Notes under the pieces: model-generated | Told to the model about the DNA's origin: nothing | Database searches by the model: none | Seen by the model: the letters and a program-made list of their open reading frames with translations, nothing else | From: Escherichia coli | GTDB taxonomy: Bacteria; Pseudomonadota; Gammaproteobacteria; Enterobacterales; Enterobacteriaceae | Reading direction: 5' to 3' (one strand) | Assembly: GCF_046105845.1 (NCBI RefSeq) | Contig: NZ_CP151004.1 | Length of the DNA: 64,000 bases | Part shown: positions 28,658-50,306 of the stretch, in pieces | Layout: each line of letters begins with the position of its first letter | Numbering within the stretch: the first letter of the stretch is position 1 | Made by a program: the position numbers and the translations under genes

Positions 28658-28707
28658 ACGGACCGTCCCCTCGCCCCTCTGGGGAGAGGGTTAGGGTGAG
28701 GGGAACA
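28658..28707. repeat. GC-rich palindromic intergenic repeat (non-REP family; possibly the element known as Box C)
   Basis: acggaccGTCCCCTCGCCCCTCTGGGGAGAGGGTTAGGGTGAGGGGAACA; near-identical copy at 42051..42100; contains self-complementary CCCCTCTGGGGAGAGGG. Confidence 0.6.
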
Positions 28708-31990: not shown

Positions 31991-34270
31991 ATGGATGACC
32001 AGTTAAAACAAAGTGCACTTGATTTCCATGAATTTCCAGTTCCAGGGAAAATCCAGGTTTCTCCAACCAAGCCTCTGGCAACGCAGCGCGATCTGGCGCT
32101 GGCCTACTCACCAGGCGTTGCCGCACCTTGTCTTGAAATCGAAAAAGACCCGTTAAAAGCCTACAAATATACCGCGCGCGGTAACCTGGTGGCGGTGATC
32201 TCTAACGGTACGGCTGTGCTGGGGTTAGGCAACATTGGCGCACTGGCAGGCAAACCGGTGATGGAAGGCAAGGGCGTTCTGTTTAAGAAATTCGCCGGGA
32301 TTGATGTATTTGACATTGAAGTTGATGAACTCGACCCGGACAAATTTATTGAAGTCGTCGCCGCGCTCGAACCAACCTTCGGCGGCATCAACCTCGAAGA
32401 CATTAAAGCGCCAGAATGTTTCTATATTGAACAGAAACTGCGCGAGCGGATGAATATTCCGGTATTCCACGACGATCAGCACGGCACGGCAATTATCAGC
32501 ACTGCCGCCATCCTCAACGGCTTGCGCGTGGTGGAGAAAAACATCTCTGACGTGCGTATGGTGGTTTCCGGCGCGGGTGCTGCAGCAATCGCCTGTATGA
32601 ACCTGCTGGTCGCGCTGGGTCTGCAAAAACATAACATCGTGGTTTGCGACTCAAAAGGCGTTATCTATCAGGGCCGTGAGCCAAACATGGCGGAAACCAA
32701 AGCCGCATATGCGGTGGTGGATGACGGCAAACGTACCCTCGATGATGTGATTGAAGGCGCGGATATTTTCCTGGGATGTTCCGGCCCGAAAGTGCTGACC
32801 CAGGAAATGGTGAAGAAAATGGCCCGTGCGCCAATGATCCTGGCGCTGGCGAACCCGGAACCGGAAATTCTGCCGCCGCTGGCGAAAGAAGTGCGTCCGG
32901 ATGCCATCATCTGTACCGGCCGTTCCGACTACCCGAACCAGGTGAACAACGTTCTTTGCTTCCCGTTCATCTTCCGTGGCGCGCTGGACGTTGGCGCAAC
33001 CGCCATCAACGAAGAGATGAAACTGGCGGCGGTACGCGCGATTGCAGAACTGGCCCATGCGGAACAGAGTGAAGTGGTGGCTTCAGCTTATGGCGATCAG
33101 GATCTGAGCTTTGGTCCGGAATACATCATTCCAAAACCATTTGATCCGCGCTTGATCGTTAAGATCGCTCCTGCGGTCGCTAAAGCCGCGATGGAGTCGG
33201 GTGTGGCGACGCGTCCGATTGCTGATTTCGACGTCTACATCGACAAGCTGACGGAGTTCGTTTACAAAACCAACCTGTTTATGAAGCCGATTTTCTCCCA
33301 GGCTCGCAAAGCGCCGAAGCGCGTCGTTCTGCCGGAAGGGGAAGAGGCGCGCGTTCTGCATGCCACTCAGGAACTGGTAACGCTGGGGCTGGCGAAACCG
33401 ATCCTTATCGGTCGTCCGAACGTGATCGAAATGCGCATTCAGAAACTGGGCTTGCAGATCAAAGCGGGTGTTGATTTTGAGATCGTCAATAACGAATCCG
33501 ATCCGCGCTTTAAAGAGTACTGGACTGAATACTTCCAGATCATGAAGCGTCGCGGTGTCACTCAGGAACAGGCGCAGCGTGCATTGATCAGTAACCCGAC
33601 AGTGATCGGCGCGATCATGGTTCAGCGTGGCGAAGCCGATGCAATGATCTGCGGTACGGTGGGCGATTATCATGAACATTTTAGCGTGGTGAAAAATGTC
33701 TTTGGTTATCGCGATGGCGTTCACACCGCAGGTGCCATGAACGCGCTGCTGCTGCCGAGTGGTAACACCTTTATTGCCGATACATACGTCAATGACGAAC
33801 CAGACGCAGAAGAGCTTGCGGAGATCACCTTGATGGCGGCAGAAACTGTTCGTCGTTTTGGTATTGAGCCGCGCGTGGCTCTGTTGTCGCACTCCAACTT
33901 TGGTTCTTCTGACTGCCCGTCGTCGAGCAAAATGCGTCAGGCGCTGGAACTGGTCAGGGAACGTGCACCAGAACTGATGATTGATGGTGAAATGCACGGC
34001 GATGCAGCGCTGGTGGAAGCGATTCGCAGCGACCGTATGCCGGACAGCCCTTTGAAAGGTTCCGCCAATATTCTGGTGATGCCGAACATGGAAGCTGCCC
34101 GCATTAGTTACAACTTATTGCGCGTTTCCAGCTCGGAAGGTGTGACTGTCGGCCCGGTGCTGATGGGCGTGGCGAAACCGGTTCACGTGTTAACGCCGAT
34201 CGCATCGGTACGTCGTATCGTCAACATGGTGGCGCTAGCCGTGGTTGAAGCACAAACCCAACCGCTGTAA
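31991..34270 (+). CDS. maeB: NADP-dependent malic enzyme MaeB (malic enzyme plus PTA-like C-terminal domain)
   Basis: 759 aa; N-terminus [28 protein letters not shown]. Confidence 0.96.
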
Positions 34271-34287
34271 TTCATTCTTAACTCTCA

Positions 34288-34321
34288 CGCTTACCCTGAA
34301 TATTCAGGGTAAGCGGTTTTC
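34288..34321 (+). terminator. Intrinsic terminator of maeB
   Basis: cgcttaccctga-atat-tcagggtaagcg, perfect 12 bp stem, followed by gtttt. Confidence 0.85.
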
Positions 34322-34562
34322 CTGAAATATATTAGCAAAGTTTATTACTGAGTTTGCGAATAATAAAAAAAGCAGTATATAAATTATCTCGATATTATTT
34401 TATTTATATTCATGCCTCGCATATGAAAGTTTATTCATAACAGTAAATATCTCTCCATTCTTAGTGATCTACCTCACCTTTTAAACGCGCTTGCCGAATT
34501 TTGTTATTTACTCTGACGAAAAATTGTCACGATACACGAAAGTTTTTCACAGGCGGCGACTC

Positions 34563-34898
34563 ATGGATAAAGAACGCATCATTCAGGAATTTGTGCCCGG
34601 TAAACAGGTCACACTGGCGCATCTCATCGCGCATCCCGGCGAGGAACTGGCGAAGAAAATCGGCGTTCCTGATGCGGGCGCAATCGGCATTATGACGCTA
34701 ACTCCCGGCGAAACGGCGATGATCGCCGGTGATTTAGCACTAAAAGCCGCCGATGTGCATATCGGTTTTCTCGACCGTTTTAGCGGCGCGTTGGTGATTT
34801 ATGGCTCGGTGGGTGCAGTAGAAGAAGCGTTATCACAAACCGTCAGCGGTTTAGGGCGTTTATTAAATTATACGCTTTGTGAAATGACCAAAAGTTAA
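34563..34898 (+). CDS. eutS: Microcompartment shell protein EutS (permuted BMC domain)
   Basis: 111 aa from ATG 34563 ([28 protein letters not shown]...); first gene of eut operon. Confidence 0.93.
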
Positions 34899-34910
34899 TA
34901 CGAGGCATTC

Positions 34911-35390
34911 ATGAAACGAATTGCGTTTGTGGGTACCGTCGGGGCAGGAAAAACAACGTTATTTAATGCGTTGCAGGGAGATTATACCCTCGCCAGAAAA
35001 ACGCAGGCCGTAGAATTTAATGATAAGGGCGATATTGATACGCCGGGTGAATATTTTAGCCATCCCCGCTGGTATCACGCCTTAATTACCACGCTACAGG
35101 ATGTGGACATGCTGATCTATGTCCATGGCGCAAATGACCCGGAAAGCCGATTGCCTGCCGGGTTGCTGGATATTGGCGTCAGCAAACGGCAAATCGCCAT
35201 CATCAGTAAAACGGACATGCCGGATGCTGACGTCGCCGCAACGCGAAAGTTATTGCTTGAGACGGGCTTCGAGGAGCCGATTTTCGAGCTAAACAGCCAC
35301 GACCCGCAAAGCGTGCAGCAACTGGTGGATTATCTGGCATCTCTCACCAAACAGGAGGAAGCAGGTGAAAAAACTCATCACAGCGAATGA
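34911..35390 (+). CDS. eutP: Ethanolamine utilisation protein EutP (P-loop GTPase-like)
   Basis: 159 aa; Walker A GTVGAGKTT. Confidence 0.93.
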   Translation: MKRIAFVGTVGAGKTTLFNALQGDYTLARKTQAVEFNDKGDIDTPGEYFSHPRWYHALITTLQDVDMLIYVHGANDPESRLPAGLLDIGVSKRQIAIISKTDMPDADVAATRKLLLETGFEEPIFELNSHDPQSVQQLVDYLASLTKQEEAGEKTHHSE

Positions 35391-36066
35391 TATTCGTGAA
35401 GCACACGCGCGCGGCGAACAGGCAATGTCCGTGGTTCTGCGCGCCAGCATTATTACCCCGGAAGCCCGTGAAGTGGCAGATCTACTGGGTTTTACCATCA
35501 CTGAATGTGATGAATCGACCCCGGTAACGGCGTCCGTTCCCGCCAGCGTGCCAGCCGATAAAACCGAAAGCCAGCGCATCCGCGAAACCATCATCGCCCA
35601 GCTACCGGAAGGCCAGTTTACCGAAAGCCTGGTCGCGCAGCTGATGGAAAAAGTGATGAAGGAAAAACTGTCGCTGGAGCAGGGTGCAATGCAGCCGAGT
35701 TTCAAATCGGTGACCGGCAAAGGCGGCATCAAAGTTATTGATGGCAGCAGCGTCAAGTTTGGTCGTTTCGACGGCGCACAGCCACACTGCGTCGGATTAA
35801 CGGATCTGGTCACCGGAGACGACGGCAGCAGCATGGCCGCTGGTTTTATGCAGTGGGAGAACGCCTTCTTCCCGTGGACCCTGAACTATGACGAAATCGA
35901 CATGGTACTGGAAGGGGAACTGCACGTTCGCCACGAAGGCGAAACCATGATCGCCAAAGCAGGCGACGTGATGTTTATCCCGAAAGGCTCCAGCATCGAA
36001 TTTGGTACGACATCCAGCGTGAAATTCCTGTATGTCGCCTGGCCGGCTAACTGGCAATCCCTATGA
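35365..36066 (+). CDS. eutQ: Ethanolamine utilisation protein EutQ (cupin-type)
   Basis: 233 aa from GTG 35365; overlaps eutP by 26 bp. Confidence 0.92.
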   Translation: MKKLITANDIREAHARGEQAMSVVLRASIITPEAREVADLLGFTITECDESTPVTASVPASVPADKTESQRIRETIIAQLPEGQFTESLVAQLMEKVMKEKLSLEQGAMQPSFKSVTGKGGIKVIDGSSVKFGRFDGAQPHCVGLTDLVTGDDGSSMAAGFMQWENAFFPWTLNYDEIDMVLEGELHVRHEGETMIAKAGDVMFIPKGSSIEFGTTSSVKFLYVAWPANWQSL

Positions 36067-36866
36067 AAGATTTCATCACCGAAGCATGGCTAAGAGCGAA
36101 CCATACGCTCAGCGAAGGCGCAGAGATCCATCTCCCTGCGGACAGTCGCCTGACGCCCTCTGCCCGGGAGTTGCTGGAAAGCCGCCATCTGCGCATCAAG
36201 TTTATTGACGAGCAGGGCCGCCTGTTTGTTGACGATGAACAGCAGCAGCCGCAGCCCGTTCATGGGCTGACCAGTAGCGATGAACATCCGCAGGCGTGCT
36301 GCGAACTGTGCCGCCAGCCGGTGGCGAAAAAGCCGGATACGCTGACTCACCTGTCGGCGGAAAAAATGGTTGCCAAAAGCGATCCGCGTCTGGGTTTTCG
36401 TGCGGTTCTCGACAGCACCATTGCGCTGGCAGTGTGGCTGCAAATTGAACTGGCGGAACCGTGGCAGCCGTGGCTGGCGGATATCCGTTCGCGTCTTGGC
36501 AACATTATGCGTGCCGATGCGCTGGGGGAACCGCTGGGCGATCAAGCGATTGTCGGGCTTTCTGACGAAGATCTGCACCGGCTTTCTCATCAGCCGTTGC
36601 GTTATCTTGGTCACGATCATCTGGTGCCGGAAGCCAGCCACGGGCGCGATGCGGCGTTGCTGAATCTGCTACGCACCAAAGTGCGGGAAACCGAAACCGT
36701 AGCGGCGCAGGTGTTTATCACCCGCAGCTTTGAAGTATTACGCCCGGACATCTTGCAGGCGCTGAACCGCCTTTCCAGCACGGTCTACGTGATGATGATC
36801 CTGAGCGTAACGAAGCAGCCGCTAACGGTGAAGCAGATCCAACAACGACTGGGGGAAACGCAATGA
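36063..36866 (+). CDS. eutT: Ethanolamine utilisation corrinoid adenosyltransferase EutT
   Basis: 267 aa; start overlaps eutQ stop (ATGA). Confidence 0.92.
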
Positions 36867-37879
36867 TTATTGAACGTTGTCGTGAACTGGCGTTGCGAGC
36901 GCCCGCCACAGTGGTTTTTCCGGATGCGTTAGATCAACGTGTGCTGAAAGCTGCGCAATATTTACATCAACAAGGTCTGGCAACGCCCATTCTGGTCGCC
37001 AATCCGTTTGAACTTCGTCAGTTTGCGCTCAGTCACGGCGTGGCGATGGACGGGCTACAGGTGATAGATCCACATGGCAACCTCGCAATGCGGGAAGAAT
37101 TTGCCCATCGCTGGCTGGCCCGCGCGGGCGAAAAAACGCCGCCGGATGCGCTGGAAAAACTCACCGAACCGCTTATGTTCGCCGCAGCAATGGTCAGCGC
37201 CGGTAAAGCGGATGTCTGTATCGCGGGCAACCTCTCTTCCACGGCGAATGTGCTGCGTGCCGGATTACGCATTATCGGCTTGCAGCCAGGCTGTAAAACG
37301 CTCTCCTCCATTTTCCTGATGCTGCCACAGTACAGTGGCCCCGCATTGGGCTTTGCCGATTGCAGCGTGGTGCCACAGCCGACGGCGGCGCAGTTGGCGG
37401 ATATCGCGCTTGCCAGCGCCGAAACCTGGCGCGCCATCACCGGAGAAGAGCCGCGCGTGGCGATGTTGTCGTTTTCCAGTAACGGCAGCGCCCGTCACCC
37501 CTGCGTTGCCAATGTCCAGCAGGCGACAGAAATCGTCCGTGAGCGCGCGCCGCAGTTGGTAGTCGATGGCGAGTTGCAGTTTGACGCCGCCTTCGTGCCG
37601 GAAGTGGCGGCGCAAAAAGCGCCTGCCAGCCCGCTACAAGGCAAGGCCAATGTGATGGTTTTTCCGTCGCTGGAAGCCGGAAATATTGGCTACAAAATCG
37701 CACAACGACTCGGCGGATATCGTGCCGTCGGGCCATTGATACAAGGACTTGCCGCGCCGATGCACGATCTCTCTCGTGGTTGTAGCGTGCAGGAAATTAT
37801 CGAGCTGGCGCTGGTGGCAGCTGTGCCGCGTCAGACAGAAGTAAACCGTGAAAGCAGTTTACAAACACTGGTTGAATGA
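36863..37879 (+). CDS. eutD: Phosphotransacetylase EutD
   Basis: 338 aa PTA-family sequence; start overlaps eutT stop. Confidence 0.93.
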
Positions 37880-37917
37880 ACGGTCCCGTTCTGGACCCTG
37901 ATAAAGAGGAAAGCACA

Positions 37918-38211
37918 ATGGAAGCATTAGGAATGATCGAAACCCGGGGCCTGGTTGCACTGATTGAGGCTTCTGACGCGATGGTTAAAGCTGCGCGCGT
38001 CAAGCTGGTTGGTGTTAAGCAGATTGGCGGCGGCCTGTGTACTGCCATGGTTCGTGGTGATGTTGCAGCCTGTAAAGCCGCGACCGACGCAGGTGCTGCA
38101 GCGGCACAGCGTATCGGCGAGCTGGTATCTGTACACGTTATCCCGCGTCCGCACGGCGACCTGGAAGAAGTCTTCCCGATCGGCCTGAAAGGCGATAGCA
38201 GCAACCTGTAA
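37918..38211 (+). CDS. eutM: Major microcompartment shell protein EutM (BMC-H)
   Basis: 97 aa from ATG 37918 preceded by AAGAGGA; [28 protein letters not shown]. Confidence 0.95.
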
Positions 38212-38317
38212 TCACCCTGTGTGACGTCGATTCGGGCGTCACGCTCTCTCCTTTTTCAGTTTACCTTCCGCGGAGGGTAGGGGGAGCTTTTACCTGAAAT
38301 ACGCCACGGAGGCGGGT

Positions 38318-38605
38318 ATGAAACTGGCAGTCGTCACTGGACAAATTGTTTGTACCGTACGCCATCACGGACTGGCGCATGACAAATTGCTGATGGTGGA
38401 AATGATTGATCCACAAGGTAATCCTGACGGGCAATGTGCCGTCGCCATCGACAATATTGGCGCGGGAACCGGGGAGTGGGTGTTGCTGGTGAGTGGCAGT
38501 TCTGCCCGCCAGGCGCATAAAAGCGAAACGTCACCGGTCGATCTGTGCGTGATTGGCATCGTCGATGAGGTGGTGTCTGGCGGTCAGGTAATTTTCCACA
38601 AATAA
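38318..38605 (+). CDS. eutN: Microcompartment vertex protein EutN (BMC-V)
   Basis: 95 aa (MKLAVVTGQIVCTVRHHGLAHDKLLMVEMID...). Confidence 0.94.
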   Translation: MKLAVVTGQIVCTVRHHGLAHDKLLMVEMIDPQGNPDGQCAVAIDNIGAGTGEWVLLVSGSSARQAHKSETSPVDLCVIGIVDEVVSGGQVIFHK

Positions 38606-38616
38606 GGCAGAACATC

Positions 38617-40020
38617 ATGAATCAACAGGATATTGAACAGGTGGTGAAAGCGGTACTGCTGAAAATGCAAAGCAGTGACACGCCGCCCGCCGCCGTTCAT
38701 GAGATAGGCGTTTTCGCGTCCCTGGATGACGCCGTTGCGGCAGCCAAAATTGCCCAGCAAGGGTTAAAGAGCGTGGCAATGCGCCAGTTAGCCATTGCTG
38801 CCATTCGTGAAGCAGGCGAAAAACACGCCAGAGATTTAGCGGAACTTGCCGTCAGTGAAACCGGCATGGGCCGCATCGAAGATAAATTTGCCAAAAACGT
38901 CGCTCAGGCGCGCGGCACACCGGGCGTTGAGTGCCTCTCTCCGCAGGTGCTGACTGGCGACAACGGCCTGACTTTAATTGAAAACGCGCCCTGGGGCGTG
39001 GTGGCTTCGGTGACGCCTTCCACTAACCCGGCGGCAACCGTCATTAATAACGCCATCAGCCTGATTGCCGCGGGCAACAGCGTCATTTTTGCCCCGCATC
39101 CGGCGGCGAAAAAAGTCTCCCAGCGGGCGATCACGCTGCTCAACCAGGCGATTGTTGCCGCAGGCGGGCCGGAAAACTTACTGGTTACTGTGGCCAATCC
39201 GGATATCGAAACCGCGCAACGTTTGTTCAAGTTCCCGGGTATCGGCCTGCTGGTGGTGACCGGCGGCGAAGCGGTAGTGGAAGCGGCGCGTAAACACACC
39301 AATAAACGTCTGATTGCCGCAGGTGCTGGCAACCCGCCGGTAGTGGTGGATGAAACCGCTGACCTCGCCCGTGCAGCTCAGTCCATCGTCAAAGGCGCGT
39401 CTTTCGATAACAACATCATTTGTGCCGACGAAAAGGTACTGATTGTTGTGGATAGCGTAGCCGATGAACTGATGCGTCTGATGGAAGGCCAGCACGCGGT
39501 GAAACTGACCGCAGAGCAGGCGCAGCAGCTACAACCGGTGTTGCTGAAAAATATCGACGAGCGCGGAAAAGGCACCGTCAGCCGTGACTGGGTTGGTCGT
39601 GATGCGGCGAAAATCGCGGCGGCAATCGGCCTTACAGTTCCGGAACAAACGCGACTGCTGTTTGTAGAAACCACCGCAGAACATCCGTTTGCCGTGACCG
39701 AACTGATGATGCCGGTGCTGCCCGTCGTGCGCGTCGCCAACGTGGCGGATGCCATTGCGCTGGCGGTGAAACTGGAAGGCGGTTGCCACCACACGGCGGC
39801 AATGCACTCGCGCAATATCGAGAACATGAACCAGATGGCGAATGCCATTGATACCAGCATTTTCGTTAAGAACGGACCGTGCATTGCCGGGCTGGGGCTG
39901 GGCGGGGAAGGCTGGACCACCATGACCATCACCACGCCAACCGGTGAAGGGGTAACCAGCGCGCGTACGTTTGTCCGTCTGCGTCGCTGTGTATTAGTCG
40001 ATGCGTTTCGCATTGTTTAA
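38617..40020 (+). CDS. eutE: CoA-acylating acetaldehyde dehydrogenase EutE
   Basis: 467 aa aldehyde dehydrogenase-family sequence with active-site Cys context (NNIICADEK). Confidence 0.94.
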   Translation: MNQQDIEQVVKAVLLKMQSSDTPPAAVHEIGVFASLDDAVAAAKIAQQGLKSVAMRQLAIAAIREAGEKHARDLAELAVSETGMGRIEDKFAKNVAQARGTPGVECLSPQVLTGDNGLTLIENAPWGVVASVTPSTNPAATVINNAISLIAAGNSVIFAPHPAAKKVSQRAITLLNQAIVAAGGPENLLVTVANPDIETAQRLFKFPGIGLLVVTGGEAVVEAARKHTNKRLIAAGAGNPPVVVDETADLARAAQSIVKGASFDNNIICADEKVLIVVDSVADELMRLMEGQHAVKLTAEQAQQLQPVLLKNIDERGKGTVSRDWVGRDAAKIAAAIGLTVPEQTRLLFVETTAEHPFAVTELMMPVLPVVRVANVADAIALAVKLEGGCHHTAAMHSRNIENMNQMANAIDTSIFVKNGPCIAGLGLGGEGWTTMTITTPTGEGVTSARTFVRLRRCVLVDAFRIV

Positions 40021-40030
40021 GGAGTAACCG

Positions 40031-40867
40031 ATGGCGCACGACGAACAATGGCTCACCCCACGTCTGCACATAGCGGCAACGCTGTGTAACCAGACGCCTG
40101 CCGCGACGGAATCTCCGCTGTGGCTGGGGGTGGATTTGGGCACCTGCGATGTGGTGTCGATGGTTGTTGACCGCGACGGTCAGCCGGTGGCGGTATGCCT
40201 CGACTGGGCTGATGTGGTCCGCGACGGCATCGTCTGGGATTTCTTCGGTGCGGTCACCATTGTTCGTCGCCATCTCGACACCCTCGAGCAGCAATTCGGT
40301 CGCCGTTTTAGCCATGCGGCGACCTCTTTTCCTCCAGGTACGGACCCGCGTATTTCCATCAACGTGCTGGAGTCTGCCGGGCTGGAAGTGAGCCATGTGC
40401 TGGATGAGCCAACCGCAGTCGCGGATCTGCTGCAACTGGACAACGCCGGTGTAGTGGATATCGGCGGTGGCACTACCGGCATTGCCATCGTGAAAAAGGG
40501 CAAGGTGACGTACTCGGCAGATGAAGCCACCGGCGGACATCACATCTCTCTGACTCTCGCCGGAAATCGTCGTATTTCGCTGGAAGAGGCAGAGCAGTAC
40601 AAGCGCGGTCACGGTGAAGAGATTTGGCCCGCGGTGAAACCGGTGTACGAAAAAATGGCGGACATTGTTGCCCGGCATATTGAAGGGCAGGGCATTACTG
40701 ATTTATGGCTGGCGGGCGGCTCCTGTATGCAACCGGGCGTGGCGGAACTGTTTTGCAAACAATTCCCGGCGTTACAGGTGCATCTACCGCAGCACAGTTT
40801 GTTTATGACCCCGCTGGCGATCGCCAGTAGCGGGCGAGAGAAAGCGGAGGGGATCTATGCAAAATGA
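40031..40867 (+). CDS. eutJ: Ethanolamine utilisation chaperone-like protein EutJ (actin/Hsp70-fold ATPase)
   Basis: 278 aa; phosphate-binding loops DLGTCD and DIGGGTTG. Confidence 0.93.
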   Translation: MAHDEQWLTPRLHIAATLCNQTPAATESPLWLGVDLGTCDVVSMVVDRDGQPVAVCLDWADVVRDGIVWDFFGAVTIVRRHLDTLEQQFGRRFSHAATSFPPGTDPRISINVLESAGLEVSHVLDEPTAVADLLQLDNAGVVDIGGGTTGIAIVKKGKVTYSADEATGGHHISLTLAGNRRISLEEAEQYKRGHGEEIWPAVKPVYEKMADIVARHIEGQGITDLWLAGGSCMQPGVAELFCKQFPALQVHLPQHSLFMTPLAIASSGREKAEGIYAK

Positions 40868-42044
40868 ATTGCAGACCGCGCTCTTTCAGGCGTTCGATAC
40901 CCTGAATCTGCAACGGGTAAAAACATTTAGCGTTCCACCGGTGACGCTTTGCGGTCCGGGCGCGATGAGCAGTTGCGGGCAGCAAGCGCAAACGCGTGGG
41001 CTGAAACATCTGTTCGTGATGGCAGACAGCTTTTTGCATCAGGCGGGGATGACCGCCGGGCTGACGCGTAGCCTGGCCGTTAAAGGTATCGCCATGACGC
41101 TCTGGCCATGTCTGGTGGGCGAACCGTGCATCACCGACGTGTGTGCAGCCGTGGCGCAGTTGCGTGAATCGGGTTGCGATGGGGTGATCGCGTTTGGTGG
41201 TGGCTCGGTGCTGGATGCGGCAAAAGCCGTGGCGTTGCTGGTGACGAATCCCGATAGCACGCTGGCAGAAATGTCAGAAACCAGCATTCTGCAACCGCGC
41301 CTGCCGTTGATTGCCATTCCAACGACCGCCGGAACCGGCTCTGAAACCACCAACGTAACGGTGATTATCGACGCTGTGAGCGGGCGCAAGCAGGTGTTAG
41401 CCCACGCCTCGCTGATGCCGGATGTGGCGATTCTCGACGCTGCGCTGACCGAAGGCGTGCCGTCGCATGTCACGGCGATGACTGGCATTGATGCGTTAAC
41501 CCATGCTATTGAAGCGTACAGCGCGCTGAACGCGACACCGTTTACCGACAGCCTGGCGATTGGCGCAATCGCGATGATTGGTAAATCACTGCCGAAAGCG
41601 GTGGGCTACGGTCATGACCTTGCCGCGCGCGAGAGCATGTTGCTGGCTTCATGCATGGCGGGAATGGCGTTTTCCAGTGCGGGGCTTGGGTTATGCCACG
41701 CGATGGCGCATCAGCCGGGGGCGGCGCTGCATATTCCGCACGGTCTGGCGAACGCCATGTTGCTGCCAACGGTGATGGAATTTAACCGGATGGTTTGTCG
41801 TGAACGCTTTAGTCAGATTGGTCGGGCGCTGCGAACTAAAAAATCCGACGATCGTGACGCTATTAACGCGGTAAGTGAGCTGATTGCGGAAGTCGGGATT
41901 GGTAAACGACTGGGCGATATTGGTGCGACATCTGCGCATTACGGCGCATGGGCGCAGGCCGCGCTGGAAGATATTTGTCTGCGCAGCAACCCGCGTACCG
42001 CCAGCCTGGAGCAGATTATTGGTCTGTATGCTGCGGCGCAATAA
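40857..42044 (+). CDS. eutG: Iron-containing alcohol dehydrogenase EutG
   Basis: 395 aa Fe-ADH family (GGGSVLDAAKAVA); overlaps eutJ by 11 bp. Confidence 0.94.
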   Translation: MQNELQTALFQAFDTLNLQRVKTFSVPPVTLCGPGAMSSCGQQAQTRGLKHLFVMADSFLHQAGMTAGLTRSLAVKGIAMTLWPCLVGEPCITDVCAAVAQLRESGCDGVIAFGGGSVLDAAKAVALLVTNPDSTLAEMSETSILQPRLPLIAIPTTAGTGSETTNVTVIIDAVSGRKQVLAHASLMPDVAILDAALTEGVPSHVTAMTGIDALTHAIEAYSALNATPFTDSLAIGAIAMIGKSLPKAVGYGHDLAARESMLLASCMAGMAFSSAGLGLCHAMAHQPGAALHIPHGLANAMLLPTVMEFNRMVCRERFSQIGRALRTKKSDDRDAINAVSELIAEVGIGKRLGDIGATSAHYGAWAQAALEDICLRSNPRTASLEQIIGLYAAAQ

Positions 42045-42050
42045 AAGTGT

Positions 42051-42160
42051 ACGGACAGTCCCCTCGCCCCTTTGGGGAGAGGGTTAGGGTGAGGGGAACA
42101 GAGTCGCGCCGGTGCAAACAATTACCCTCACCCCGGCCCCTCGGCTTCCAGAGTGAGGGA
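42051..42160. repeat. Composite GC-rich palindromic repeat in the eutG-eutH spacer (two inverted units)
   Basis: Unit 1 at 42051..42100 is a near-identical copy of 28658..28707; a second unit in opposite orientation (accctcacccc...gagtgaggg) at 42124..42159. Confidence 0.6.
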
Positions 42161-42213
42161 AAAACCCACTTTCAGCATTGGCAATAAATAACAACTAACA
42201 GGGAGTAAAGGTG

Positions 42214-43440
42214 ATGGGAATTAACGAAATCATCATGTACATCATGATGTTCTTTATGCTGATAGCTGCCGTAGACAGGATCCTGTCGCAGTTCGGTGGT
42301 TCTGCTCGTTTCCTCGGTAAGTTCGGTAAAAGTATCGAAGGATCAGGCGGGCAGTTTGAAGAAGGCTTTATGGCAATGGGCGCTCTGGGCCTGGCGATGG
42401 TCGGTATGACCGCGCTGGCACCGGTACTGGCTCACGTACTCGGGCCGGTAATTATCCCGGTTTACGAAATGCTCGGTGCAAACCCGTCAATGTTCGCCGG
42501 AACACTGCTGGCGTGCGATATGGGCGGGTTCTTCCTCGCCAAAGAGCTGGCGGGCGGCGACGTAGCAGCGTGGCTATACTCTGGGTTAATTCTCGGGTCG
42601 ATGATGGGGCCAACGATTGTGTTTTCCATTCCGGTGGCGCTCGGCATTATCGAACCTTCTGACCGTCGTTATCTGGCGCTCGGCGTGCTGGCGGGCATTG
42701 TGACCATTCCGATTGGCTGTATTGCTGGTGGTCTGGTTGCTATGTACTCCGGTGTGCAGATCAACGGTCAGCCGGTGGAATTCACCTTTGCGCTGATCCT
42801 GATGAACATGATCCCGGTACTTATCGTTGCGGTGCTGGTGGCGCTGGGGCTGAAATTCATCCCGGAAAAAATGATCAACGGCTTCCAGATCTTCGCCAAA
42901 TTCCTCGTTGCATTGATCACCCTCGGTCTTGCTGCCGCGGTAGTGAAATTCCTCCTTGGCTGGGAACTGATCCCCGGTCTGGATCCTATCTTTATGGCCC
43001 CTGGCGATAAACCCGGTGAAGTGATGCGCGCCATTGAAGTTATCGGTTCTATCTCCTGCGTTCTGTTAGGGGCGTACCCGATGGTACTGCTGCTGACTCG
43101 CTGGTTTGAAAAACCGCTGATGAGCGTCGGTAAAGTGCTGAATATGAACAACATCGCGGCAGCTGGCATGGTGGCAACGCTTGCCAACAATATCCCGATG
43201 TTCGGCATGATGAAGCAGATGGATACCCGCGGCAAAGTGATCAACTGTGCCTTCGCCGTTTCCGCTGCTTTCGCCCTGGGTGACCACTTAGGCTTCGCCG
43301 CTGCCAACATGAACGCCATGATTTTCCCGATGATTGTCGGCAAGTTGATCGGCGGCGTAACGGCGATTGGCGTGGCGATGATGCTGGTGCCAAAAGAAGA
43401 CGCGACCGCGGCCAAAACCGAAGTGGAGGCACAATCGTGA
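42214..43440 (+). CDS. eutH: Ethanolamine permease EutH
   Basis: 408 aa polytopic membrane protein from ATG 42214 (MGINEIIMYIMMFFML...). Confidence 0.94.
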   Translation: MGINEIIMYIMMFFMLIAAVDRILSQFGGSARFLGKFGKSIEGSGGQFEEGFMAMGALGLAMVGMTALAPVLAHVLGPVIIPVYEMLGANPSMFAGTLLACDMGGFFLAKELAGGDVAAWLYSGLILGSMMGPTIVFSIPVALGIIEPSDRRYLALGVLAGIVTIPIGCIAGGLVAMYSGVQINGQPVEFTFALILMNMIPVLIVAVLVALGLKFIPEKMINGFQIFAKFLVALITLGLAAAVVKFLLGWELIPGLDPIFMAPGDKPGEVMRAIEVIGSISCVLLGAYPMVLLLTRWFEKPLMSVGKVLNMNNIAAAGMVATLANNIPMFGMMKQMDTRGKVINCAFAVSAAFALGDHLGFAAANMNAMIFPMIVGKLIGGVTAIGVAMMLVPKEDATAAKTEVEAQS

Positions 43441-44840
43441 ACACTCGCCAGCTACTGAGCGTCGGTATCGATATCGGCACCACCACCACCCAGGTGATCT
43501 TCTCCCACCTGGAGCTGGTTAACCGTGCGGCGGTGTCGCAGGTGCCGCGCTACGAATTCATCAAACGCGAAATTAGCTGGCAAAGCCCGGTGTTCTTTAC
43601 CCCTGTCGATAAACAGGGTGGTTTAAAAGAAGCGGAACTGAAATCGCTGATTTTAGAGCAATATCAGGCTGCGGGCATTGCGCCGGAAAGCGTTGATTCT
43701 GGTGCCATCATCATCACCGGTGAAAGCGCGAAAACCCGCAACGCTCGCCCGGCGGTGATGACGCTCTCCCAGTCGCTGGGCGATTTTGTCGTCGCCAGCG
43801 CCGGGCCGCATCTCGAATCCGTGATCGCCGGTCACGGTGCCGGGGCGCAAACCCTTTCTGAACAACGGCTGTGTCGGGTCCTGAATATCGATATCGGCGG
43901 TGGCACCGCGAACTACGCCCTGTTCGATGCCGGAAAAATCAGCGGCACCGCCTGCCTCAACGTCGGCGGTCGCCTGCTGGAAACCGACAGCCAGGGGCGC
44001 GTGGTTTACGCTCATAAACCGGGGCAGATGATTGTGGATGAGTGCTTCGGTGCAGGCACTGACGCCCGTTCGCTGACCGGCGCGCAGCTGGTGCAGGTTA
44101 CCCGGCGGATGGCAGAACTGATTGTCGAAGTGATTGACGGAACGCTCTCGCCGCTCGCGCAGGCATTGATGCAAACCGGTTTGTTGCCCGCAGGTGTTAC
44201 GCCCGAAATCATTACGCTTTCTGGCGGCGTGGGCGAATGTTATCGCCACCAGCCCGCCGACCCGTTCTGTTTTGCCGATATCGGCCCGCTGCTGGCAACG
44301 GCGCTGCATGACCATCCGAGCCTGCGTGAGATGAACGTGCAGTTTCCGGCGCAAACCGTACGCGCCACGGTGATTGGCGCGGGTGCACATACCCTTTCGC
44401 TCTCTGGCAGCACAATCTGGCTGGAGGGCGTACAACTGCCGCTGCGCAATTTGCCGGTGGCGATCCCGATTGATGAAACGGATCTGGTGAGTGCCTGGCA
44501 ACAAGCGCTAATTCAACTGGATCTTTGCCCCAAAACTGACGCGTACGTGCTGGCGCTTCCCGCCTCGCTGCCTGTGCGTTACGCCGCGGTACTGACGGTC
44601 ATCAACGCGCTGGTCGATTTCGTCGCGCGTTTTCCGAATCCGCATCCCCTGCTGGTGGTGGCCGGGCAGGACTTTGGTAAAGCTCTGGGCATGTTGTTGC
44701 GCCCACAGCTACAACAACTCCCGTTGGCAGTCATTGACGAAGTGATTGTCCGCGCGGGGGACTATATCGACATTGGTACGCCTCTTTTTGGCCGATCGGT
44801 TGTGCCGGTGACGGTGAAATCACTCGCATTTCCTTCCTGA
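43437..44840 (+). CDS. eutA: Ethanolamine ammonia-lyase reactivase EutA
   Basis: 467 aa from GTG 43437 (NTRQLLSVGIDIGTTTTQVIFS...), overlapping eutH stop. Confidence 0.94.
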   Translation: MNTRQLLSVGIDIGTTTTQVIFSHLELVNRAAVSQVPRYEFIKREISWQSPVFFTPVDKQGGLKEAELKSLILEQYQAAGIAPESVDSGAIIITGESAKTRNARPAVMTLSQSLGDFVVASAGPHLESVIAGHGAGAQTLSEQRLCRVLNIDIGGGTANYALFDAGKISGTACLNVGGRLLETDSQGRVVYAHKPGQMIVDECFGAGTDARSLTGAQLVQVTRRMAELIVEVIDGTLSPLAQALMQTGLLPAGVTPEIITLSGGVGECYRHQPADPFCFADIGPLLATALHDHPSLREMNVQFPAQTVRATVIGAGAHTLSLSGSTIWLEGVQLPLRNLPVAIPIDETDLVSAWQQALIQLDLCPKTDAYVLALPASLPVRYAAVLTVINALVDFVARFPNPHPLLVVAGQDFGKALGMLLRPQLQQLPLAVIDEVIVRAGDYIDIGTPLFGRSVVPVTVKSLAFPS

Positions 44841-44851
44841 GGGAACGACTT

Positions 44852-46213
44852 ATGAAACTAAAGACCACATTGTTCGGCAATGTATATCAGTTTAAGGATG
44901 TAAAAGAGGTGCTGGCTAAAGCCAACGAACTGCGTTCGGGGGATGTGCTGGCAGGCGTTGCAGCGGCAAGTTCACAGGAGCGCGTGGCGGCAAAGCAGGT
45001 GTTGTCGGAAATGACCGTAGCGGACATCCGCAATAATCCGGTGATTGCCTATGAAGATGACTGCGTGACGCGGCTGATTCAGGACGATGTTAACGAAACG
45101 GCCTACAACCAGATTAAAAACTGGAGCATCAGCGAACTGCGTGAGTATGTGCTAAGCGATGAAACCAGCGTGGACGACATTGCCTTTACCCGCAAAGGGC
45201 TGACCTCGGAAGTGGTCGCGGCGGTAGCGAAGATTTGCTCCAACGCGGACCTGATCTACGGCGCGAAGAAAATGCCGGTGATCAAAAAGGCCAATACCAC
45301 CATCGGTATTCCGGGCACCTTCAGCGCCCGCTTGCAGCCAAACGACACCCGTGACGACGTGCAAAGTATCGCCGCGCAAATCTACGAAGGGCTTTCCTTC
45401 GGGGTGGGCGATGCGGTGATCGGCGTTAACCCGGTGACTGACGACGTGGAAAACTTAAGCCGCGTGTTGGACACCATTTACGGCGTGATCGACAAATTCA
45501 ACATCCCAACTCAGGGCTGCGTGCTGGCGCACGTCACCACCCAGATTGAAGCGATCCGTCGTGGCGCACCAGGCGGGCTGATTTTCCAGAGTATCTGCGG
45601 CAGCGAAAAAGGGCTGAAAGAATTTGGCGTGGAGCTGGCGATGCTCGACGAAGCGCGCGCAGTGGGCGCAGAGTTCAATCGTATCGCCGGGGAAAACTGC
45701 CTCTACTTCGAAACCGGACAAGGTTCGGCGCTGTCTGCTGGCGCTAACTTCGGCGCAGACCAGGTGACGATGGAAGCGCGTAACTACGGGCTGGCGCGTC
45801 ATTACGATCCGTTTATCGTCAACACCGTGGTCGGCTTTATTGGGCCGGAGTATCTCTACAACGACCGCCAGATTATCCGTGCGGGCTTAGAAGATCACTT
45901 TATGGGTAAGCTGAGCGGCATCTCTATGGGCTGTGACTGCTGCTACACCAACCACGCTGACGCTGACCAGAACCTCAACGAAAACCTCATGATCCTGCTC
46001 GCCACCGCAGGCTGCAACTACATCATGGGGATGCCGCTGGGCGATGACATCATGCTCAACTATCAGACCACCGCATTCCACGACACTGCCACTGTGCGTC
46101 AGTTACTCAACCTGCGCCCGTCACCGGAGTTTGAACGCTGGCTGGAAAGCATGGGCATTATGGCAAACGGTCGCCTGACCAAACGGGCGGGCGATCCGTC
46201 ACTGTTCTTCTGA
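44852..46213 (+). CDS. eutB: Ethanolamine ammonia-lyase large subunit EutB
   Basis: 453 aa (MKLKTTLFGNVYQFKDVKEVLAKANELRSGD...); starts 11 bp after eutA stop with no intervening insertion. Confidence 0.96.
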   Translation: MKLKTTLFGNVYQFKDVKEVLAKANELRSGDVLAGVAAASSQERVAAKQVLSEMTVADIRNNPVIAYEDDCVTRLIQDDVNETAYNQIKNWSISELREYVLSDETSVDDIAFTRKGLTSEVVAAVAKICSNADLIYGAKKMPVIKKANTTIGIPGTFSARLQPNDTRDDVQSIAAQIYEGLSFGVGDAVIGVNPVTDDVENLSRVLDTIYGVIDKFNIPTQGCVLAHVTTQIEAIRRGAPGGLIFQSICGSEKGLKEFGVELAMLDEARAVGAEFNRIAGENCLYFETGQGSALSAGANFGADQVTMEARNYGLARHYDPFIVNTVVGFIGPEYLYNDRQIIRAGLEDHFMGKLSGISMGCDCCYTNHADADQNLNENLMILLATAGCNYIMGMPLGDDIMLNYQTTAFHDTATVRQLLNLRPSPEFERWLESMGIMANGRLTKRAGDPSLFF

Positions 46214-46233
46214 TGACGCGGAGATAACACATC

Positions 46234-47118
46234 ATGGATCAAAAACAGATTGAAGAAATTGTACGCAGCGTGATGGCGTCAATGGGACAAGCGGCCCCCG
46301 CGCCGTCAGAAGCAAAGTGCGCCACCACCTGTGCGGCACCGGTGACCTCGGAAAGCTGCGCGCTGGACTTAGGCTCTGCGGAAGCAAAAGCGTGGATTGG
46401 CGTTGAAAACCCGCATCGCGCAGACGTATTAACAGAACTGCGTCGCAGCACCGTGGCCCGCGTTTGTACCGGTCGTGCCGGTCCGCGTCCGCGTACCCAG
46501 GCGTTGCTGCGTTTCCTGGCCGATCACTCTCGTTCGAAAGATACCGTACTGAAAGAAGTGCCGGAAGAGTGGGTGAAAGCGCAGGGCTTGCTGGAAGTCC
46601 GCTCTGAAATTAGCGACAAAAATCTCTACCTGACTCGTCCGGATATGGGCCGCCGCCTGTGTGCAGAAGCTGTTGAAGCCCTGAAAGCACAGTGTGTTGC
46701 TAATCCGGACGTGCAGGTCGTTATTTCTGATGGCCTGTCAACTGATGCGATCACCGTGAACTACGAAGAGATCCTGCCACCGCTGATGGCGGGCCTGAAA
46801 CAGGCCGGGCTGAAAGTCGGTACGCCATTCTTTGTTCGTTATGGTCGCGTGAAGATTGAAGATCAGATCGGTGAGATCCTCGGCGCGAAAGTGGTGATCC
46901 TGCTGGTGGGGGAACGCCCGGGATTAGGGCAGTCAGAAAGTCTCTCCTGCTACGCCGTTTACTCGCCGCGTATGGCAACCACCGTTGAAGCCGATCGCAC
47001 CTGTATCTCTAACATTCACCAGGGCGGCACGCCGCCGGTTGAAGCCGCAGCCGTCATTGTGGATTTGGCGAAACGTATGCTGGAGCAGAAAGCATCCGGC
47101 ATCAACATGACCCGATAA
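46234..47118 (+). CDS. eutC: Ethanolamine ammonia-lyase small subunit EutC
   Basis: 294 aa; follows eutB. Confidence 0.95.
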
Positions 47119-47127
47119 GGAGGCATC

Positions 47128-47787
47128 ATGCCAGCTTTAGATTTGATTCGACCGTCGGTAACCGCCATGCGGGTGATTGCCTCCGTTAACGCCGAATTTG
47201 CGCGTGAACTGAAATTGCCGCCGCATATTCGTAGCCTTGGGCTGATTTCTGCCGACTCCGATGACGTAACCTACATTGCGGCTGACGAAGCGACCAAGCA
47301 GGCGATGGTCGAAGTGGTGTATGGCCGCTCGCTGTATGCGGGAGCTGCACACGGACCGTCACCGACTGCCGGTGAAGTGCTGATTATGCTCGGTGGGCCA
47401 AACCCGGCGGAAGTGCGTGCTGGTCTGGATGCGATGGTTGCGCATATTGAAAATGGCGCGGCTTTCCAGTGGGCTAATGATGCGCAAGATACGGCATTCC
47501 TGGCACATGTAGTTTCGCGTACCGGTTCTTATCTCTCATCAACCGCCGGGATCACGCTTGGCGATCCGATGGCGTATCTGGTGGCACCGCCGCTGGAAGC
47601 GACCTACGGCATTGATGCAGCCCTGAAATCTGCCGACGTACAGCTGGTGACCTATGTCCCGCCGCCGTCTGAAACCAACTACTCGGCAGCATTTTTAACC
47701 GGTAGCCAGGCCGCGTGTAAAGCAGCCTGTAACGCCTTTACCGATGCAGTGCTGGAAATCGCGCGTAATCCAATCCAGCGTGCGTAA
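47128..47787 (+). CDS. eutL: Microcompartment shell protein EutL (tandem BMC domain)
   Basis: 219 aa ([38 protein letters not shown]...). Confidence 0.94.
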
Positions 47788-47799
47788 CGGAGGTTGCCG

Positions 47800-48300
47800 A
47801 TGATCAATGCACTGGGATTGCTGGAAGTGGACGGCATGGTCGCCGCGATAGATGCAGCTGATGCCATGCTCAAAGCAGCTAACGTTCGTCTGCTCAGTCA
47901 CGAAGTGCTTGACCCTGGTCGCCTAACGCTGGTGGTGGAAGGCGATCTGGCGGCGTGTCGTGCGGCGCTGGACGCAGGTTGTGCTGCCGCGATGCGTACC
48001 GGGCGTGTCATCAGCCGTAAGGAGATCGGTCGGCCAGACGATGACACCCAGTGGCTGGTTACTGGCTTTAACCGCCAGCCGAAGCAACCCGTAAAGGAAC
48101 CCGACGCGCCAGTTATCGTCGCGGAATCTGCTGACGAGTTGTTGGCGCTGTTAACATCAGTACGTCAGGGAATGACGGCAGGAGAAGTGGCAGCCCACTT
48201 TGGCTGGCCGCTCGAAAAAGCCAGAAATGCGCTCGAACAGCTCTTTTCTGCCGGGACGTTACGTAAACGCAGTAGTCGTTATCGTCTCAAGCCCCATTAA
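47800..48300 (+). CDS. eutK: Microcompartment shell protein EutK (BMC domain plus C-terminal helix-turn-helix-like tail)
   Basis: 166 aa from ATG 47800 with GGAGG 6 nt upstream; MINALGLLEVDGMVAAIDAADAMLKAANV. Confidence 0.93.
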   Translation: MINALGLLEVDGMVAAIDAADAMLKAANVRLLSHEVLDPGRLTLVVEGDLAACRAALDAGCAAAMRTGRVISRKEIGRPDDDTQWLVTGFNRQPKQPVKEPDAPVIVAESADELLALLTSVRQGMTAGEVAAHFGWPLEKARNALEQLFSAGTLRKRSSRYRLKPH

Positions 48301-48311
48301 CCTGTCGGAGG

Positions 48312-48337
48312 TGCCGGGTGTCCTACAACACCCGGCA
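48312..48337 (+). promoter_or_regulatory. Perfect 10 bp stem-loop in the eutR translation initiation region
   Basis: tgccgggtgt-cctaca-acacccggca; GGAGG immediately upstream (48307..48311) and eutR ATG 8 nt downstream (48346). Confidence 0.55.
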
Positions 48338-48345
48338 TTAACATC

Positions 48346-49398
48346 ATGAAAAAGACCCGTACAGCCAATTTGCACCATCTTTATCATGAACCCTTACCCG
48401 AAAACCTGAAGCTCACGCCGAAGGTCGAAGTGGATAATGTTCATCAACGACAGACAACGGATGTCTATGAACATGCTTTGACGATTACCGCCTGGCAGCA
48501 GATTTACGATCAGCTGCATCCGGGCAAGTTTCATGGTGAATTTACGGAAATTCTACTCGATGATATTCAGGTTTTTCGTGAATACACCGGTCTGGCGCTG
48601 CGTCAGTCGTGCCTGGTCTGGCCGAACTCGTTCTGGTTTGGCATTCCGGCGACGCGCGGTGAGCAGGGATTTATCGGTTCGCAATGTTTGGGAAGCGCAG
48701 AAATTGCGACGCGCCCTGGCGGCACCGAGTTTGAATTAAGTACGCCGGACGATTACACGATCCTGGGCGTAGTGCTTTCTGAAGATGTCATCACCCGTCA
48801 GGCTAACTTTTTGCATAATCCGGATCGGGTATTACATATGCTGCGTAGCCAGTCGGCGCTGGAAGTGAAAGAACAGCATAAAGCCGCGCTGTGGGGCTTT
48901 GTCCAACAGGCGCTGGCGACATTTTGCGAGAACCCGGAAAATCTTCATCAGCCTGCTGTGCGTAAAGTGCTGGGGGATAATTTGCTAATGGCGATGGGGG
49001 CGATGCTGGAAGAAGCGCAGCCAATGGTGACGGCGGAAAGCATCAGTCATCAGAGTTACCGTAGATTACTTTCCCGCGCCCGTGAATATGTGCTGGAAAA
49101 TATGTCTGAGCCGGTGACGGTGCTGGACTTGTGTAATCAACTGCATGTCAGCCGCCGCACGCTACAAAACGCGTTTCACGCTATTTTAGGCATTGGCCCA
49201 AATGCGTGGCTGAAACGCATTCGCCTGAACGCCGTACGCCGCGAACTGATAAGCCCTTGGTCGCAAAGCACAACGGTAAAAGACGCAGCCATGCAGTGGG
49301 GATTCTGGCATCTGGGGCAATTCGCCACGGATTATCAGCAACTGTTTGCCGAGAAGCCGTCACTGACGCTGCATCAGCGGATGCGGGAATGGGGGTGA
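48346..49398 (+). CDS. eutR: AraC-family transcriptional activator of the eut operon, EutR
   Basis: 350 aa; C-terminal AraC-type helix-turn-helix region. Confidence 0.94.
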
Positions 49399-49403
49399 GG
49401 GAG

Positions 49404-50306
<903 letters not shown>

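Follow-up and report, generated by a model that had tools for sequence, protein, structure and literature searches.

An Escherichia coli genome carrying a complete, uninterrupted 17-gene eut operon and a vacant attachment site at the eutA stop codon

Introduction

It is known from experiment that uninterrupted eut operons of E. coli let the cell use ethanolamine and form microcompartments (PMC7617246, PMC11334477, PMC6652756), and in other E. coli strains growth was found to depend on ethanolamine and B12, with microcompartments being formed (PMC7617246, PMC11334477). The CPZ-55 insertion of K-12 is a published exception (PMC6379469, PMC6652756, PMC7617246, PMC11334477): the interrupted K-12 operon gives no ethanolamine use, and growth on ethanolamine returns once the prophage has been deleted scarlessly in BW25113 (PMC11334477). 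The 8-bp duplication associated with this insertion has been given as TCAGGAAG (PMC6379469), and the eutA-eutB site has been described as a recurrent hot spot of island integration (PMC6652756). The literature places an inducible promoter, PI, upstream of eutS (PMC7617246).

Here we describe the eut locus in a window of 64,000 nt from an E. coli genome (contig NZ_CP151004.1). Positions 34563-49398 (+ strand) carry, with hardly any room for doubt, a complete, intact and colinear canonical 17-gene EUT1-type eut microcompartment operon with an empty attachment site at the eutA stop. Such a 17-gene operon is already known and is the standard E. coli locus, with nothing new in its content.

Results

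All 17 eut genes are present and intact

The ORF table, compared gene by gene with two annotated E. coli loci, gave the order eutS-P-Q-T-D-M-N-E-J-G-H-A-B-C-L-K-R on the + strand (Table 1). In a profile search, all of the encoded proteins (17/17) scored over the curated NCBIfam cutoffs and aligned to their equivalog profiles over their full or nearly full length, and the ORF listing contained no internal stop in any of the 17 ORFs. Gene lengths match the annotation in both references with the sole exception of EutC (294 vs 295 aa). These results bear out the sequence-only reading, which had described 17 eut genes in canonical order with intact frames; no eut gene carries a frameshift, each being one intact ORF. 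Protein identity to K-12 ranges from 96.9% to 100% across the set, with EutS and EutB at 100% and the lower values found in EutP (96.9%), EutA (97.9%) and EutG (98.0%). The surrounding synteny, maeB / eut / hemF-amiA, is the same in annotated E. coli genomes, and the AraC-type regulator gene eutR is the final gene, ahead of the convergent hemF, which ends at 49404, 5 nt past eutR.

Every functional group of the pathway is represented. Both subunits of the signature enzyme, ethanolamine ammonia-lyase, exceed their cutoffs (EutB by NF011649 and PF06751, EutC by NF003971 and PF05985), as do all five members of a complete shell set, comprising the BMC proteins EutS, EutM and EutK, the tandem-BMC protein EutL (the Pfam BMC domain was found in all four) and the EutN/CcmL-family vertex protein EutN (PF03319). 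The aldehyde and cofactor enzymes EutE, EutD and EutG, the EutA reactivase and the EutT adenosyltransferase are likewise above their curated cutoffs.

Start codons require some care, as the ORF listing begins eutS, eutM, eutH and eutK at alternative starts further upstream. The NCBIfam profiles favour the canonical ones (34563, 37918, 42214 and 47800, respectively): the NF012018 alignment begins at residue 15 of the long eutM ORF, giving a 97-aa form, and that of NF011665 at residue 2 of the GTG-extended eutH ORF. Two genes, eutQ and eutA, start with GTG.

Table 1. Positions of the eut genes and associated features in the window, with NCBIfam scores (bits vs cutoff) and Pfam domains
Feature	Coordinates	Strand	Product or character	Evidence
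maeB-end terminator-like hairpin	34288..34315	+	upstream limit of the eut transcription unit	12-pair stem, then T-rich tail
AT-rich region upstream of eutS	34316..34562	+	putative place of inducible promoter PI	GC drops to 0.47
eutS	34563..34898	+	BMC-domain shell protein	NF012012, 247 vs 123; Pfam BMC
eutP	34911..35390	+		NF012011, 349 vs 258
eutQ	35365..36066	+	GTG start	NF012001, 497 vs 193
eutT	36063..36866	+	corrinoid adenosyltransferase	NF011595, 568 vs 226
eutD	36863..37879	+	phosphotransacetylase	NF007233, 409 vs 310
eutM	37918..38211	+	major hexameric shell protein	NF012018, 212 vs 133; Pfam BMC
eutN	38318..38605	+	pentameric vertex protein	NF011992, 210 vs 118; PF03319
eutE	38617..40020	+	acetaldehyde dehydrogenase	NF011927, 735 vs 403
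eutJ	40031..40867	+		NF011660, 399 vs 182
eutG	40857..42044	+	alcohol dehydrogenase	NF011998, 884 vs 556
eutG-eutH variable insert	42046..42181	none	GC-rich dispersed repeat	imperfect palindromes
eutH	42214..43440	+	ethanolamine permease	NF011665, 872 vs 574
eutA	43437..44840	+	ethanolamine ammonia-lyase reactivase; GTG start	NF007991, 1067 vs 799
Empty attachment core CTTCCTGA	44833..44840	+	core for CPZ-55 / IntZ-family islands	takes in the eutA stop codon
eutA-eutB spacer GGGAACGACTT	44841..44851	+	11 nt	
eutB	44852..46213	+	ethanolamine ammonia-lyase large subunit	NF011649, 665 vs 554; PF06751
eutC	46234..47118	+	ethanolamine ammonia-lyase small subunit, 294 aa	NF003971, 340 vs 230; PF05985
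eutL	47128..47787	+	tandem-BMC shell protein	NF011934, 401 vs 198; two BMC stretches
eutK	47800..48300	+	shell protein	NF012010, 362 vs 218; BMC + C-terminal EutK_C (PF16365)
eutR	48346..49398	+	AraC-family operon activator	NF007522, 790 vs 319; residues 1-350 of 350

Gene overlaps and transcription signals

The five overlaps claimed for the operon, eutP/Q (26 nt), eutQ/T (4), eutT/D (4), eutJ/G (11) and eutH/A (4), were all recovered, at identical offsets in the reference annotations; a sixth, of 4 nt between eutD and eutM, arises only if the non-canonical ATG at 37876 is used. It is reasonable to infer from this arrangement that the overlapping genes may be translationally coupled.

A sigma-70 consensus scan of positions 33900-50400 found no match upstream of eutS or eutR, nor at the eutA-eutB junction, and its single promoter-like site, located within eutN, was fewer than found in shuffled sequence. 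The lack of a match upstream of eutS and eutR is expected of an activator-dependent promoter. Terminator-like sites in the same interval were not enriched in a consensus scan, with the exception of the clear maeB terminator. Across the whole window, neither an Rfam scan at gathering thresholds nor ARAGORN (tRNA and tmRNA genes) returned any match (0 in both), and thus the eut operon and its surroundings contain no known riboswitch or sRNA, and there is no tRNA-type attachment site.

The CPZ-55 attachment site is empty

According to the sequence-only reading, eutA ends at 44840 and eutB begins at 44852 with nothing in between, at a junction filled by CPZ-55 in MG1655. Both statements hold: only the 11-nt spacer GGGAACGACTT separates the two genes in the window, and in NC_000913.3 the interval 2558691-2565480, which lies between eutB and eutA, is annotated as 'cryptic prophage CPZ-55'. 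Aligning the junction with that of a K-12-lineage genome in which the locus has the coordinates of MG1655 placed the CPZ-55 insertion point directly past the eutA stop, with a duplicated 8-bp core, CTTCCTGA, in agreement with the published duplication. In K-12 a copy of this core flanks CPZ-55 on either side, and the window has a single copy; the attachment site is therefore empty, as had been proposed. With 11 nt between eutA and eutB and one CTTCCTGA, there is no integrase, no set of island genes and no flanking duplication; the site is unoccupied and does not belong to the CPZ-55 / IntZ island family.

The uninterrupted state is common. The junction was unbroken in 4964 of the 5426 complete E. 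coli genomes (91.5%), and eutA and eutB were adjacent, with an identical 11-nt spacer, in 35/35 species representatives recovered from at least 8 enterobacterial genera (Citrobacter, Klebsiella, Salmonella, Pluralibacter, Yokenella, Intestinirhabdus, Pseudocitrobacter and other Escherichia), a set ascertained in part through the EutB N-terminus. This outgroup pattern supports the view that the uninterrupted operon is ancestral. As strain context, the junction separates this strain from the K-12 type at eutA-eutB, but the uninterrupted state, being common to 91.5% of complete genomes, tells little else.

A variable spacer and a shortened EutC linker

An alignment to K-12, together with an inverted-repeat search, showed that the repeat in the eutG-eutH spacer of the window stands where K-12 has REP/BIME elements; megablast alignments to most references stop at its borders (42045/42182). 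This spacer allele occurs in 305 of 5426 genomes (5.6%). For marking strains the empty attachment site is uninformative, and the eutG-eutH allele is informative and the better of the two.

Aligned to its K-12 counterpart, EutC lacks one linker residue, Asn33, and is otherwise identical. The deletion falls in a low-complexity linker past the N-terminal targeting peptide, which appears from the sequence to be retained (residues 1-32 are identical to K-12); residues 1-20 have been used in a GFP fusion, eutC1-20-GFP (PMC11334477).

Conservation around the attachment site

The attachment site lies within a block of ~100 nt that is invariant across genera, synonymous sites included, and that consists of the last ~30 eutA codons, the spacer and the first eutB codons (Citrobacter, Klebsiella, Salmonella and other genera, in a species set chosen in part through the EutB N-terminus). 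Conservation at synonymous sites here is unusually strong, going slightly past the textbook account. RNA folding of positions 44755-44880 on both strands was no stabler than in shuffled controls (z +0.88 and +0.45), and stable RNA structure is accordingly not the cause of conservation in this interval. A literature search for a promoter internal to the operon at the eutA-eutB boundary found no report of one. The junction might be a functional element at the nucleotide level, perhaps a cis signal setting EutB translation or mRNA processing, a suggestion drawn from the conservation pattern that we put forward tentatively and consider rather unlikely. Were it correct, the extreme conservation could explain why IntZ-type integrases target the eutA-eutB site, and could also account for the large harm done when eutA and eutB are separated.

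Discussion

The clean eutA-eutB junction could in principle be read in other ways. An IntZ-type island may have integrated in the past and been excised precisely, so that the present arrangement was restored and the site was not always vacant. Precise excision by an integrase would leave exactly the single CTTCCTGA core that we observe, at a site that is a repeated integration hot spot for several different islands (PMC6652756). The sequence fits both histories, but parsimony favours a site that was never occupied, given the vacant junctions in most E. coli genomes and in all outgroup species, and the closest relative over the locus, WP4-S18-ESBL-07, is empty at eutA-eutB as well; we thus regard past excision as very improbable. 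An assembly artefact, such as a collapsed prophage, has a negligible chance of being the explanation: no point in its support was found, and against it stand the 99.8% identity of the junction sequence to finished genomes, the same spacer in 35 other species and the absence of any composition break at the junction.

It is also conceivable, albeit improbable, that the operon is structurally intact yet silent or impaired through a regulatory or missense change. The difference of ~3.3% from K-12 at the nucleotide level leaves space for a regulatory difference, and the proteins carry both the substitutions noted above in EutP, EutA and EutG and the EutC deletion. All substitutions, however, stay within the variation normal for E. 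coli (identity over the operon reaches 98.7% in the best genome), the deletion is confined to the linker, and each Eut protein can be aligned with its equivalog profile from one end to the other. An intact operon with a vacant attachment site remains the preferred reading.

Expression of the operon, microcompartment assembly and the growth phenotype are predicted by homology to characterised E. coli and Salmonella systems. Acting with ethanolamine and adenosylcobalamin, EutR would turn on transcription from the promoter upstream of eutS, and ethanolamine would be imported by EutH. Within a shell made of EutS, M, N, L and K, EutBC would convert ethanolamine to acetaldehyde and ammonia, with EutA reactivating EutBC and EutT providing the cofactor, and acetyl-CoA, acetyl-phosphate or ethanol would be formed from the aldehyde by EutE, EutD and EutG. 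Ethanolamine use is predicted for the source strain; this trait is tied to gut and urinary-tract fitness. The significance of the locus is small, its practical value being confined to annotation.

Comparison with known systems

All 17 eut genes of K-12 MG1655/BW25113 are orthologous to those of the window, flanking genes and overlaps agree as well, and the two operons share 96.7% nucleotide identity. Unlike the window, K-12 has a 6.8 kb cryptic prophage (intZ, yffL-yffS) past the eutA stop, with the CTTCCTGA duplication at its ends. In Salmonella enterica, the eut reference EUT1 locus has ~82% DNA identity to the window across the portion that the two share, and the representative of subsp. 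arizonae has eutA adjacent to eutB with the identical 11-nt spacer. A non-coli Escherichia was rejected as the source, E. whittamii and other Escherichia species having 92.5-95% identity, as compared with 96.7-98.7% to E. coli.

The closest likeness is to the uninterrupted operons of E. coli Nissle 1917, UPEC isolates and eut+ W3110, which agree with the window in all 17 genes and in their order, eutB following eutA directly. Relative to these other uninterrupted E. coli operons, the window has the minority eutG-eutH allele and an EutC that is one codon shorter. In the annotated best-match E. coli genome, gene lengths are identical save for the EutC codon and the DNA is 98.6% identical; among complete RefSeq E. 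coli genomes, the highest identity to the window is 98.7% for the operon and 99.0% for window positions 1-25000.

An unoccupied CPZ-55 attachment site between eutA and eutB

In the window, the eutA stop codon is followed by GGGAACGACTT and then by the eutB start codon; reading the junction sequence showed that the sequence-only reading, which had eutA ending at 44840 and eutB starting at 44852 with nothing in between, was exact. In the MG1655 record, by comparison, the 'cryptic prophage CPZ-55' is annotated between eutB and eutA (2558691-2565480). When the two junctions of a K-12-lineage genome whose locus has MG1655's coordinates were aligned to the window, CPZ-55 proved to be inserted directly after the stop codon of eutA, with an 8-bp core, CTTCCTGA, duplicated at its two ends. 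The target-site duplication in the literature, 5'-TCAGGAAG-3' on the other strand (PMC6379469), agrees with this core. The window has the core once, and it therefore carries the unoccupied attachment site. The MG1655 annotation and this alignment together bear out the earlier claim that the prophage present here in MG1655 is absent from the window.

The uninterrupted state had also been called ancestral. A degenerate pattern for the first 17 eutB codons, searched in a single genome of each GTDB species, picked out 35 species representatives; they belong to Citrobacter, Klebsiella, Salmonella (arizonae), Pluralibacter, Yokenella, Intestinirhabdus, Pseudocitrobacter and several species of Escherichia. 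Every one of the 35 has a EutA homologue immediately before eutB, and the eutA frame closes at TGA followed by the same 11-nt spacer as in the window; in two of the assemblies eutA contains frameshifts, with the junction sequence unchanged in both. In this part of the Enterobacteriaceae, an operon without an insert is therefore the ancestral state.

An empty eutA-eutB site is not unusual in E. coli. When complete genomes were searched with the 500 bp around the centre of the junction, 4964 of 5426 (91.5%) had this stretch unbroken and roughly 8.5% had it split, matching the published prevalence of 8% (PMC6379469). No more than 213 genomes, for the most part laboratory derivatives of K-12, carry CPZ-55 of the K-12 type, while about 200 others matched solely an IntZ-like integrase (80-90% identity to the K-12 integrase gene intZ), the rest of CPZ-55 being unmatched. 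Strain R2 (NZ_CM143107.1, locus L003, 9719-20032) carries at the same site a different island of ~10 kb, encoding an IntZ-like integrase, two HTH regulators, gadC, murI, a decarboxylase pseudogene and IS1, in keeping with a published account that calls the site a 'prophage insertion hot spot' (PMC6652756). In NZ_CP165600.1, a 4.75-Mb genome labelled K-12 W3110, the eut operon spans 14.9 kb, so that CPZ-55 is absent; in this it is unlike the K-12 reference and consistent with the eut+ laboratory W3110 of PMC11334477.

Features of the eut region (window positions)
Feature	Position	Remarks
Second exact copy of 23-nt repeat core	28681-28703	near tktB
Terminator hairpin of maeB	34288-34315	clear; upstream neighbour of eut
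eut operon	34563-49398	17 consecutive ORFs, + strand
Product lengths (aa)		EutS 111, EutP 159, EutQ 233, EutT 267, EutD 338, EutM 97, EutN 95, EutE 467, EutJ 278, EutG 395, EutH 408, EutA 467, EutB 453, EutC 294, EutL 219, EutK 166, EutR 350
Hairpin 3' of eutM	38219-38244	GC-rich, 10 pairs, then T-rich tract
eutG-eutH spacer segment	42046-42181	136 nt, GC-rich, imperfect palindromes
Ultra-conserved block	44760-44951	core 44811-44856
Invariant runs	44760-44874	33, 62, 16 nt (11-species alignment)
Third-position identity 1.00	about 44774-44872	11 species
att core	44833-44840	single copy
eutA stop codon	44838-44840	
eutB start codon	44852	ATG
EutC residue loss	46330-46332 region	Asn33 of K-12 EutC

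An ultra-conserved block at the eutA-eutB junction

The junction lies in a block that is ultra-conserved across enterobacterial genera, with the CPZ-55 att core in its middle. In 30 species outside Escherichia, the 60 nt that precede the eutB start match the window at 98% identity, as compared with 70-92% at the other eut gene starts and an operon-wide mean of 83%; the block's core is the longest run of the operon invariant in all 30. When 11 of these species were aligned over the full length of the operon, identity at third codon positions reached 1.00 within the block, against an average of 0.67. Ascertainment is a caveat: the species were chosen by their EutB N-terminal peptide, which fixes the amino acids of 44852-44901 and leaves the synonymous sites free.

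Shorter invariant blocks mark the start of eutM, of eutE and of eutH, as well as the 3' end of eutB, so that the junction effect is in part the general constraint on translation-initiation regions; conservation reaching upstream into the preceding gene is, however, peculiar to eutA-eutB. Compared with shuffled sequence, the block shows no extra folding stability on either strand, and a consensus scan found no promoter-like site in it. The conservation is real and explained by neither a stable RNA fold nor a promoter match. It is plausibly the reason that integrases target this spot.

Strain context and the eutG-eutH spacer

Judged on segments 1-25000 and 31563-52398, the window is E. coli proper, yet without a very close complete RefSeq genome. 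Among the 5426 complete RefSeq E. coli, the best identity is about 99.0% over 1-25000 (the hyf, acrD, narQ and tmcA region) and 98.7% over the eut operon, where most genomes reach 96.6-97%; other Escherichia species reach 92.5-95%. The best relatives differ by segment (strain 746 and others for the former, WP4-S18-ESBL-07 for the latter), and with no near genome the source would seem to be an E. coli lineage that is either mosaic or sparsely sampled.

The eutG-eutH spacer discriminates between strains better than the empty att site does. Where K-12 has REP/BIME copies, the window has instead a GC-rich dispersed repeat with a 23-nt core, GGGGAGAGGGTTAGGGTGAGGGG. With a query that spans the repeat and matches a median of seven places per genome, the window's allele was found in only 305 of the 5426 genomes (5.6%). 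The repeat had no Rfam match; it resembles the boxC repeat family and may belong to it.

Operon integrity and expected function

All 17 eut ORFs, read from their canonical starts, are free of internal stops, and their lengths equal those annotated in two E. coli genomes, except for EutC (294 vs 295 aa). Each product scored above the curated NCBIfam cutoff for its own eut family, most matching equivalog models end to end; Pfam placed BMC domains in EutS, EutM, EutL and EutK and a EutN/CcmL domain in EutN, and likewise confirmed the EutB and EutC domains. These lines of evidence agree with the earlier description of 17 intact genes in canonical order, and the five start/stop overlaps noted with it are confirmed and recur at the same offsets in both reference annotations. 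The flanks, maeB upstream and the convergent hemF-amiA downstream, are the standard E. coli context, and the system is in all respects a known one.

The 106-nt eutM-eutN spacer contains a hairpin just 3' of eutM, which could act as an intra-operon attenuator or mRNA stabiliser favouring the major shell over the vertex protein; its sequence is poorly conserved among the few outgroup loci covering this stretch.

The one structural difference of the operon is the loss of Asn33 from EutC, which is otherwise identical to the K-12 protein; the missing residue falls in an Ala/Pro/Cys-rich linker that joins the N-terminal targeting peptide to the catalytic domain, and the window's sequence offers no argument against function. 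Homology, together with experiments published for equivalent operons, leads us to infer that the operon is probably functional. Ethanolamine plus B12 supports growth of E. coli Nissle 1917, which also forms microcompartments, whereas BW25113, which carries CPZ-55, neither grows nor forms them and leaves eutB uninduced (PMC7617246); once the prophage had been removed scarlessly from BW25113, growth with ethanolamine as nitrogen source was restored (PMC11334477).
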